From the NCBI GenBank assembly GCA_038886535.1, contig JAVZXS010000001.1:100954-164953 (forward strand): a DNA stretch of 64,000 bases, given 5' to 3'. Numbering within the stretch: the stretch's first letter is position 1; every line of letters begins with the position of its first letter. Positions 28,489 to 33,631 of the stretch are shown piece after piece. The notes under the pieces were generated by a model that did not search any database, had not been told where the DNA came from, and saw nothing but the letters and a program-made list of their open reading frames with translations. The DNA comes from Candidatus Micrarchaeia archaeon (GTDB lineage Archaea; Micrarchaeota; Micrarchaeia; CABMEP01). Made by a program: the position numbers and the translations under genes.

Positions 28489-28696
28489 GGGGATATTGCG
28501 TAACCAGGCAGCGCGGCAGGCTCCAGTTTTTGGGAATGCCTCTTGCCTGTACTGCTTTCTAGGATAAATTTCCTGGGCAGTCAGCAGGTATTCTGACTCG
28601 GGTCAAACCGGGAATGATCTATAACGGGAGCTATGATTTGATGATTGCTCCAAAAGAAGATACCTGCAAGTCGGGGTTCAAATCCCCGTATCCCCA
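28489..28696 (+). tRNA. tRNA-Trp(CCA) with 135-nt intron at 37/38 (28527-28661)
   Basis: 5' exon GGGGAUA..GCAGG-CUCCAG; 3' exon A-CCUGC..CGGGG-UUCAAAU-CCCCG-UAUCCCC-A; BHB-like junction with UUUUGG/CCAAAA stem. Confidence 0.92.
28527..28661 (+). ncRNA. Intron-encoded C/D guide RNA for tRNA-Trp positions 34 and 39
   Basis: GCAGGUAUU-CUGA guide (N+5 = C39); K-turn C'/D'; 12-nt AUAACGGGAGCU-AUGA guide (N+5 = C34); analogous to the euryarchaeal tRNA-Trp intron sRNA. Confidence 0.78.
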
Positions 28697-33413: not shown

Positions 33414-33513
33414 TCCTTCGTCAATCTATTTTTATTTGAATCTAATTTTTATTCACATCTATTTTATTCGAATATTCTTAGCTATAATTACATTAAGAAA
33501 TAGAATTTTAAAG

Positions 33514-33631
33514 TGCAGGGGGTGAGATTCGAACTCACGTAAGGCCTAAGCCAACAGCTTTCTTACGGGCTGCCTTTTAGGCTCTGCCTAGGTCTTGAGG
33601 CTGCCCCGTTTGACCGCTCCGGCACCCCTGC
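33514..33631 (-). tRNA. tRNA-Leu(CAA) with 34-nt intron at 37/38 (33560-33593)
   Basis: GCAGGGG..GCAGC-CUCAAG[intron]A-GCUGU, long variable arm UGGCUUAGGCC, GUGAG-UUCGAAU-CUCAC. Confidence 0.92.

Follow-up and report, generated by a model that had tools for sequence, protein, structure and literature searches.

The tRNA-Trp locus and its intron

The DNA analysed here (the window) is a 64,000-nucleotide (nt) stretch of contig JAVZXS010000001.1 from a Candidatus Micrarchaeia archaeon, a tiny symbiotic member of the Micrarchaeota (DPANN), the source assembly of which comprises 1.14 Mb and is 88% complete. It carries a tRNA-Trp(CCA) gene at 28489-28696 on the forward (+) strand, the strand of all features of this locus given below, and the gene is interrupted at the canonical 37/38 position by an intron of 135 nt (28527-28661). 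The intron has the sequence features of a box C/D dual guide directed to C34 and C39 of its own host tRNA, with box C placed 3' of box D. The 5' exon (28489-28526) covers tRNA positions 1-37, with the anticodon C34 C35 A36 at 28523-25, and the 3' exon (28662-28696) runs from A38 to the discriminator A73; CCA is unencoded and a T-run follows. These coordinates, obtained by direct reading, are exactly those given by ARAGORN with introns allowed (option -i), which reported tRNA-Trp(cca) i(39,135). The exons are conserved in 41 relatives.

From 5' to 3', the intron consists of a 5' arm, guide 39, box D', a capped stem, box C', guide 34, box D, box C, a short sequence resembling the target (the anti-guide) and a tail. 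A preliminary description of this DNA had proposed coordinates for the boxes, guides and target mimic, and all of them were correct on direct reading. Its assignment of a dual C/D guide for C34 and C39 under the N+5 rule (target opposite the fifth base upstream of the D-type box), with a G:A mismatch at position 36, was seen again here, and its box labels agree with the published order C-guide 39-D'-C'-guide 34-D. The linear intron itself reads D'-C'-D-C and not C-D'-C'-D with a terminal stem.

Default ARAGORN missed the gene, and Rfam at both gathering and permissive thresholds missed the tRNA-Trp locus and returned no C/D family match. Since standard tRNA and snoRNA finders miss both gene and guide, DPANN annotations under-report such genes and guides.

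The D'/C' motif and guide 39

Guide 39 occupies a 12-nt window at 28581-28592, in which the pairing part GCAGGUAU (28584-91) forms 8 base pairs (bp) with AU|A38-C43, the bar marking the splice site. G28588, the fifth base 5' of D', lies opposite C39, and the energy of the guide:target duplex was calculated to be -14.0 kcal/mol. The same register, with C39 opposite the fifth base upstream of D', was found in 18/18 two-guide introns from 7 families.

Box D' (CUGA, 28593-28596) and box C' (AUGAUCU, 28614-28620), both identified from the sequence and the relatives, flank the capped C-stem of a kink-turn at 28597-28612, with strands CUCGG (28597-601) and CCGGG (28608-12) and the loop GUCAAA. The stem appears in predicted folds and covaries among relatives (CUCGG/CCGGG, CUGCG/CGCAG, CUCC/GGAG, CUCU/AGAG, CCUC/GAGG, CCAA/UUGG). 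In the predicted kink-turn, A28613-U28615 is the 3-nt bulge and G28616-A28617 form sheared pairs with G28595-A28596.

Where a canonical box C would sit, the intron has a variable hairpin, ACUGC...GCAGU (28551-28581), an expansion segment that is folded in the minimum-energy structure. The preliminary description had made it 34 nt; it measures 31 nt. It is kept in L001-L004 of the related introns, replaced by a shorter hairpin in L005 and absent from other families. The claim that no box C lies on the 5' side was borne out, as no UGA trinucleotide occurs anywhere in 28527-28592, the intron part 5' of D', and box C sits 3' of D. In addition, no C-like 7-mer was found 9-15 nt upstream of guide 39 in 15 related two-guide introns. 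At the level of sequence, these two negatives together exclude a degenerate box C on the 5' side. Of the candidates considered for such a box, GGAAUGC (28533-39) has no usable in-register GA, and GGAUGC of L005 lies 21 nt from D' and is unconserved.

Two further pairings of the intron 5' part were noted. GAAUGCC (28533-28540) can pair with GGUAUUC (28587-28593), which comprises the last bases of guide 39 and the first of D'; the pairing appears in the free-intron fold, giving guide 39 an internal partner as well, and L005 retains a counterpart, GGAUGC/GUAUUC. Moreover, window positions 28538-28556, 5' of guide 39, are complementary to exon bases ~17-31, that is, the 3' strand of the D-stem and the 5' strand of the anticodon stem. 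The same exon-complementary region is present in L005, L159, L165, L168-L170 and L172; against shuffled sequences, the pairing had p<=0.02 in f11, f20, f23 and L005 and p about 0.08 in the window, and it was absent from f7 and f8. The intron 5' region may hold the exon strand displaced by guide 39, a role left out of the model below.

Guide 34, box D and the relocated box C

Guide 34 (28621-28632) fills exactly the 12 nt between C' and D and pairs with G30-G37 plus two intron bases. G28628, at N+5, lies opposite C34 in a duplex of 8 positions with one mismatch, G28626:A36, followed by 2 bp into the intron, and the energy is -11.6 kcal/mol. Both guide:target duplexes therefore extend over tRNA and intron bases, each crossing an exon-intron junction. 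The C'-to-D spacer is 12-13 nt in the 18 relatives, and a C-to-D' spacer does not exist in the linear RNA. No alternative target in trans was found that could account for the G:A mismatch: tRNA-Gly(CCC) reads GCUUCCCA, and perfect 9-mers in other places are about as frequent as expected by chance.

Box D (28633-28636) is the AUGA variant, recognized from the sequence and the relatives and identical to that of the Thermoplasmata tRNA-Trp introns. It is followed by UU and then by the relocated box C (28639-28647) in UGAUGAUU (28639-46), which can be read as UGAUGA (28639-44) or, preferably, as AUGAUUG (28641-47) in a putative kink-loop (K-loop) with box D; a further UU precedes the anti-guide. 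Box C was found 3' of box D in all relatives compared. The first D position and the sixth C position covary, since CUGA occurs with GAxG, AUGA or ACGA with GAxU, and UUGA with GAxG or GAxA, which gives the pair types C-G, A-U, U-A and U:G. This covariation favours, in the window, the register with sheared pairs at G28643-A28644 and a U28646:A28633 closing pair. The D-to-C loop, described earlier as unusually tight, then counts 6 nt with the second GA (28643-44), a normal size, given that published D'-C' K-loops have 5-7 nt.

In L004, which belongs to the same genus, and in L172, a stem-loop is inserted exactly between D and C and turns the K-loop into a stem-closed kink-turn. The sequence comparisons point to a kink-turn made of AUGA and the GAUGA-type box after it, with D/C as a probable K-loop using GAUU of UGAUGAUU. 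In predicted folds, both candidate kink-turns arise from neighbouring sequence in the linear RNA. Guide 34 lies between the two motifs, and guide 39 is anchored at its 3' end only.

To estimate how often the arrangement would arise by chance, the intron was dinucleotide-shuffled 20,000 times. Sites resembling guide 34, with xUGA at N+5, turned up in 2.1% of the shuffles and sites resembling guide 39 in 0.6%; both together were present in 2/20,000 (1e-4), and both with a C-like box after each D in 0/20,000. Relabelling CUGA/AUGAUCU as the terminal C/D pair and AUGA/UGAUGA as C'/D' was considered and dropped, because the published table assigns guide 39 to D' and guide 34 to D, and because the genome's own stand-alone guides have a hairpin-closed D'/C'.

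The anti-guide and the splice-site fold

The anti-guide GCUCCA (28647-28652) equals tRNA positions 31-36 (28520-25), and AAAGAAGAU runs from it to the 3' splice site. Its GCUCC pairs with GGAGC (28627-31) of guide 34, and its UCC also takes part in the outer splice-site helix. In relatives, the bases behind box C can be paired first with D position 1 and, without interruption, with the 3' portion of guide 34; the resulting helix measures 8 bp in family f7, 7 bp in f11, 4-9 bp in f23 and 4 bp in f8 (each p<=0.03 versus shuffled tails). The anti-guide varies as GCUCC, GCUCU, GCUUC and GCUUU, and the C-to-U changes retain G:U pairs with GGAGC, which argues that it is selected for guide pairing and not for resemblance to the tRNA. 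In the window, the helix consists of 2 bp, a bulged U28632 and GCUCC/GGAGC, and minimum-energy folding predicts it for the pre-tRNA as well as for the free intron, whether linear or circular. The calculated duplex energies are -9.7 kcal/mol for guide 34 with the mimic and -6.5 kcal/mol for the intron 5' end with the mimic region.

A bulge-helix-bulge can be drawn from the anticodon stem, the bulge AU|A, the central helix CUCC/GAAG with a C:A mismatch, the bulge AG|U and the outer helix UUUUGGG/UCCAAAA. The intron 5' strand UUUUGGG of the outer helix lies at 28528-28534 and pairs with UCCAAAA at 28649-55. The tail GAAGAU (28656-28661) contributes GAAG, which pairs with C32-C35 in the central 4-bp helix, and AU, which forms the 3' splice-site bulge with A38; the intron ending GAAGAN| is conserved in relatives. 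The preliminary description had the mimic pair either with guide 34 or with the intron 5' end in the splicing stem. The first pairing is upheld by the G:U-keeping changes in relatives, whereas the second is not general, as in f7, f11 and f23 the anti-guide lies outside the splice-site helix, with a three-base overlap in the window's genus.

In the simplest view, the anti-guide supplies the far strand of a lengthened stem II, which would stabilise the stemless K-loop. A role in switching from a methylation fold to a splicing fold is plausible from the modelled pairings, since the anti-guide and the exon are rivals for the guide and, in this genus, three bases of the anti-guide also belong to the splice-site helix. 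The conserved anti-guide helix offers a handle on the balance between two mutually exclusive folds, one for methylation and one for splicing.

Distribution among relatives

Conservation of the boxes had been set beforehand as a test of the proposal, and the order D'-C'-guide 34-D-C turned out to be conserved across Micrarchaeia. A BLAST search of the pre-tRNA against 40 related genomes, followed by intron extraction, gave the same layout in four species of the same genus (79-98% identical) and in two other families (L010, L030). With a covariance model, the two-guide core was detected in 20/401 genomes of the class, from 7 families. All aligned two-guide introns (18/18, from 7 Micrarchaeia families) follow the scheme guide 39 (12 nt)-D'-stem-loop-C'-12/13 nt-D-loop or hairpin-C. 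L001 and L005 are separated by only 2 differences in the 3'-terminal 69 nt of the intron, whereas their 5' parts differ by large indels. On these alignments, the permuted layout is real and conserved in Micrarchaeia.

An intron-blind 5'-exon scan of GTDB species genomes yielded 74 tRNA-Trp introns, mostly labelled Micrarchaeota/Micrarchaeia. About 45 non-redundant introns of 59-85 nt carry one guide and read xUGA-hairpin-RAUGAUxA-12 nt guide 34-D-3 to 8 nt-AUGAAGU|, that is, the order D'-C'-guide 34-D-C without guide 39. Minimal introns of 38-39 nt, reduced to guide 34-D-hairpin-C, were found in L012, L148 and L153; that of L012, from the window's genus, has 39 nt and reads g34-CUGA-hairpin-GAUGAUA. 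Another 23 short introns (16-37 nt), 17 from the GTDB scan and 6 from the related-genome set, are boxless. Among the scanned tRNA-Trp introns, the canonical order with box C first was seen in L070 and L125 only.

Several one-guide introns (L118, L056, L037, L076, L132, L043, L049, L039 and L073) have a box D site (N+5 from C34) without GA, such as ACAA, UCUU, CAAA or UUAA, and keep C', the guide and the terminal AUGAAGU. They are either eroded guides or guides in another register. In L165 and L168-L171 (f23) and in L173 (f3), a second tRNA-Trp intron, rich in CUUUUUCUUUC...GAAAGAAA repeats, lies in the T-arm region and accompanies the two-guide anticodon intron.

Protein machinery and other RNAs of the genome

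Fibrillarin and Nop5 were found in 41/41 genomes sampled, and the source genome also encodes L7Ae, RtcB and two EndA-family open reading frames (ORFs) of 385 and 177 amino acids (aa). The sole Nop5 gene lies outside the window, at contig C3:31287-32096 (-). Its product of ~262 aa aligns to residues 122-374 of Nop5 from S. solfataricus (388 aa) and retains the coiled coil and the C-terminal domain, without the N-terminal fibrillarin-binding domain. Most of the 41 related genomes likewise have short Nop5 open frames (about 256-320 aa). No ORF for the N-terminal domain was found beside the nop5 or the fibrillarin gene, and a search with Pfam NOP5NT was uninformative, as archaeal controls gave no match.

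Stand-alone C/D small RNAs (sRNAs) were searched for with three scans. The strict one gave none, the relaxed one only coding-like matches, and the hairpin-aware one two real sRNAs, at C1:70616-70678 (-) and C2:219955-220020 (+). Both have the canonical order C-D'-C'-D, 12-nt spacers and a D'/C' hairpin; they read AUGAUGA-12 nt-UUGA-hairpin-AUGAAAU-12 nt-CUGA and AUGAUGA-12 nt-CUGA-hairpin-GUGACGA-12 nt-CUGA, respectively. The organism thus also uses ordinary guides, and the D'/C' hairpin of the intron is the local norm.

Introns of at least six other tRNA genes share a palindromic hairpin, GAAACUyUyUU...AArArAGUUUC, in one to three copies. The tRNAs are Gly(CCC) (C2:135525-135671), Arg(UCU) (C1:258097-258247), Leu(CAA) (C2:198430-198608), Ser(GCU), Tyr(GUA) and Ser(CGA). 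The introns that carry it showed no C/D boxes, and its spread suggests a mobile or protein-binding element passing among tRNA introns. A tRNA-Leu(CAA) gene with a 34-nt intron lies within the window at 33513-33631 (-), next to tRNA-Glu(CUC); it was found by Rfam and ARAGORN -i and missed by default ARAGORN. Finally, the Pfam match of RtcB is split (model positions 1-52 and 46-426), with the two parts ~1.5 kb apart in one 1008-aa frame at contig C2:11179-13989 (-), which looks like an intein in the RNA ligase gene.

Proposed mechanism and alternative explanations

The evidence makes it fairly likely, from sequence and predicted structure, that this is a working intron-encoded box C/D guide for 2'-O-methylation of tRNA-Trp C34 and C39, in which box C has moved from the 5' end to the 3' side of box D. 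L7Ae would bind both kink-turns, and a Nop5 dimer with fibrillarin would then methylate the N+5 nucleotides. Since the guide duplexes include intron bases, the substrate must be the unspliced pre-tRNA; as in Haloferax, the guide would act either on its own molecule or on a second copy. The GCUCC helix would stabilise the stemless K-loop and offer the guide an alternative partner; once the guide is occupied by GCUCC, the anticodon region would be free for bulge-helix-bulge folding. Circularisation by EndA and RtcB is probable, as in other archaea, and would be unneeded for assembly of the ribonucleoprotein (RNP).

The layout would most simply have originated by tandem duplication and trimming of a canonical guide, or from a re-opened circular form, to give guide 39-D'-C'-guide 34-D-C. 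The D-C hairpin, as still seen in L012, L148, L153, L004 and L172, would then derive from the two strands of the former terminal stem.

Several observations weigh against this interpretation. The G:A mismatch lies two bases from the C34 target and is kept in five species of the genus, and guide 39 has no 5' flanking box, the element that normally sets the 12-nt ruler in archaeal reconstitutions. The pair between the first D' and the sixth C' position is C:C in the window and not C-G. The guide 34:anti-guide helix of the window's genus needs a one-base bulge, with only 2 bp contiguous. In addition, with a Nop5 that lacks the N-terminal domain, the RNP may assemble in a non-textbook way.

The preliminary description had proposed that the canonical order is restored only after circularisation. 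In this explanation, the guide would be complete only after EndA excision and RtcB ligation, and only the circle would direct methylation of C39, perhaps of both targets, in trans. As topology the claim stands, since a circle formally restores the order C-g39-D'-C'-g34-D. EndA and RtcB are encoded in the genome, circular excised archaeal introns and C/D sRNAs are frequent, excised Haloferax introns work in trans, and a permuted sRNA of Nanoarchaeum equitans was seen as a circle and argued to require it. As a requirement, however, it is weakened by distances and folds. In the circle, box C would lie 83 nt from D' in the window; the relatives have 46-98 nt there, a spacing that is not conserved and far from ~12 nt. 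In predicted folds, the two kink-turns are local and already present in the linear RNA, and the pre-tRNA holds the intron ends together through the splice-site helix and the tRNA body. One-guide and minimal relatives would gain nothing from a circle, and a circular guide would also need unspliced pre-tRNA as its substrate, given the intron bases in the duplexes. A circularisation-dependent guide was thus considered rather unlikely.

It is also possible, although we regard it as speculative, that Micrarchaeota use a distinct C/D RNP logic, with chained guide-D-loop-C hairpin units masked by anti-guides, a Nop5 without the N-terminal domain, and methylation coupled to splicing by competition. 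In this tentative proposal, the same strands would be contested three ways, the guide pairing with either the exon or the anti-guide, and the anti-guide with either the guide or the intron 5' end. In its strongest form, the excised circular intron would be the sole fully active enzyme and circularisation an obligatory step of guide maturation.

Less probable still is that guide 34 is the sole true guide. The complement at 28584-91 would then serve to open the anticodon stem for C34 methylation, with no methylation of C39. Guide 39 has no upstream box C, about 45 one-guide Micrarchaeota species lost the 39-complement and kept D'/C' and guide 34, and other intron parts also pair with exon strands. 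However, a mere folding element would not need the exact C39 N+5 register kept in 18/18 two-guide introns, and the guide 39-D' unit is a verified Um39 guide in Haloferax. This explanation is improbable.

That the intron is a decaying relic, an inactive canonical guide that lost its 5' box C and acquired the 3' UGAUGA by chance, is very unlikely: the G:A mismatch in guide 34, the non-consensus D (AUGA) and C' (AUGAUCU) and the eroded D boxes of some one-guide relatives would fit it, but the 3' 69 nt of L001 and L005 have only the 2 differences despite the large 5' indels, box order and the 12/13-nt spacing are retained across 7 families, the D'/C' stem and the D1:C6 pair covary, and chance is excluded by the absence of the full set from the 20,000 shuffles.

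Comparison with known systems

The proposed working guide with a relocated box C has a close counterpart in the tRNA-Trp intron guides of other archaea. The 26 guides listed by Grosjean et al. (2008; PMC2584109, Additional file 4), from haloarchaea, methanogens, Thermococcales, Archaeoglobus, Thermoplasmata and Pyrobaculum, all have the order stem-C-guide 39-D'-loop/hairpin-C'-guide 34-D-stem, and in those of Thermoplasmata box D is AUGA and box C is UGAUUA. The euryarchaeal guide (the 103-nt intron of Haloferax volcanii; sR50 of Pyrococcus) and the window intron share the gene, the 37/38 site and the targets 34 and 39. They are collinear from guide 39 to box D, their guide duplexes span the exon-intron junctions, and in both the guide-bound and splice-site folds are mutually exclusive. 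The AUGA box D is common to the window intron and Thermoplasmata, and the D1:C6 pair matches AUGA/UGAUUA. On this sequence comparison, the window intron is homologous to the classical euryarchaeal tRNA-Trp intron guide.

The differences concern the intron ends. In all 26 published introns, box C (RUGAUGA) and the terminal stem lie 5' of guide 39, whereas in the window C follows D after 2-6 nt. The C/D motif is a local K-loop in the window and, in the euryarchaeal guide, a kink-turn closed by the two ends of the intron. The window intron adds the anti-guide after box C, and its position 39 is C and not U. Among the papers covered by full-text searches, none described a tRNA-Trp intron guide in which box C lies 3' of box D. 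The device is thus already known, and the new part is the position of box C. The tRNA-Trp intron guide is a textbook case of a host RNA that modifies itself and a model for how archaeal C/D RNPs measure the 12-nt spacer.

Circles are common among the excised tRNA introns and C/D sRNAs of archaea, and a C/D-like tRNA-Met intron has also been described. The closest case of rotated boxes is sRNA24 of Nanoarchaeum equitans, a permuted stand-alone C/D sRNA for which a circular form was proposed to restore the order (Randau 2012, PMC3491384). Like the window intron, it comes from a DPANN archaeon and has the C/D boxes in rotated gene order. In contrast, sRNA24 is a single case, an independent gene beside the split reverse gyrase, the circle of which was shown by inverse reverse-transcription PCR, whereas the guide in the window is a tRNA intron conserved across a phylum-level lineage, with local predicted kink-turns.

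Half-mer box C/D RNAs are artificial constructs used for reconstitution and crystallography of archaeal C/D RNPs. To our knowledge, natural half-mer-like guides have not been described. Half-mers have one kink-turn with the guide attached on the D side only, as in guide 39 and the 38-39-nt introns of L012, L148 and L153. A natural, phylum-wide intron in which one guide is bounded on both sides and the other anchored at one end, together with relatives that have a single kink-turn, offers a test of whether two-sided anchoring and symmetric assembly are needed in vivo.

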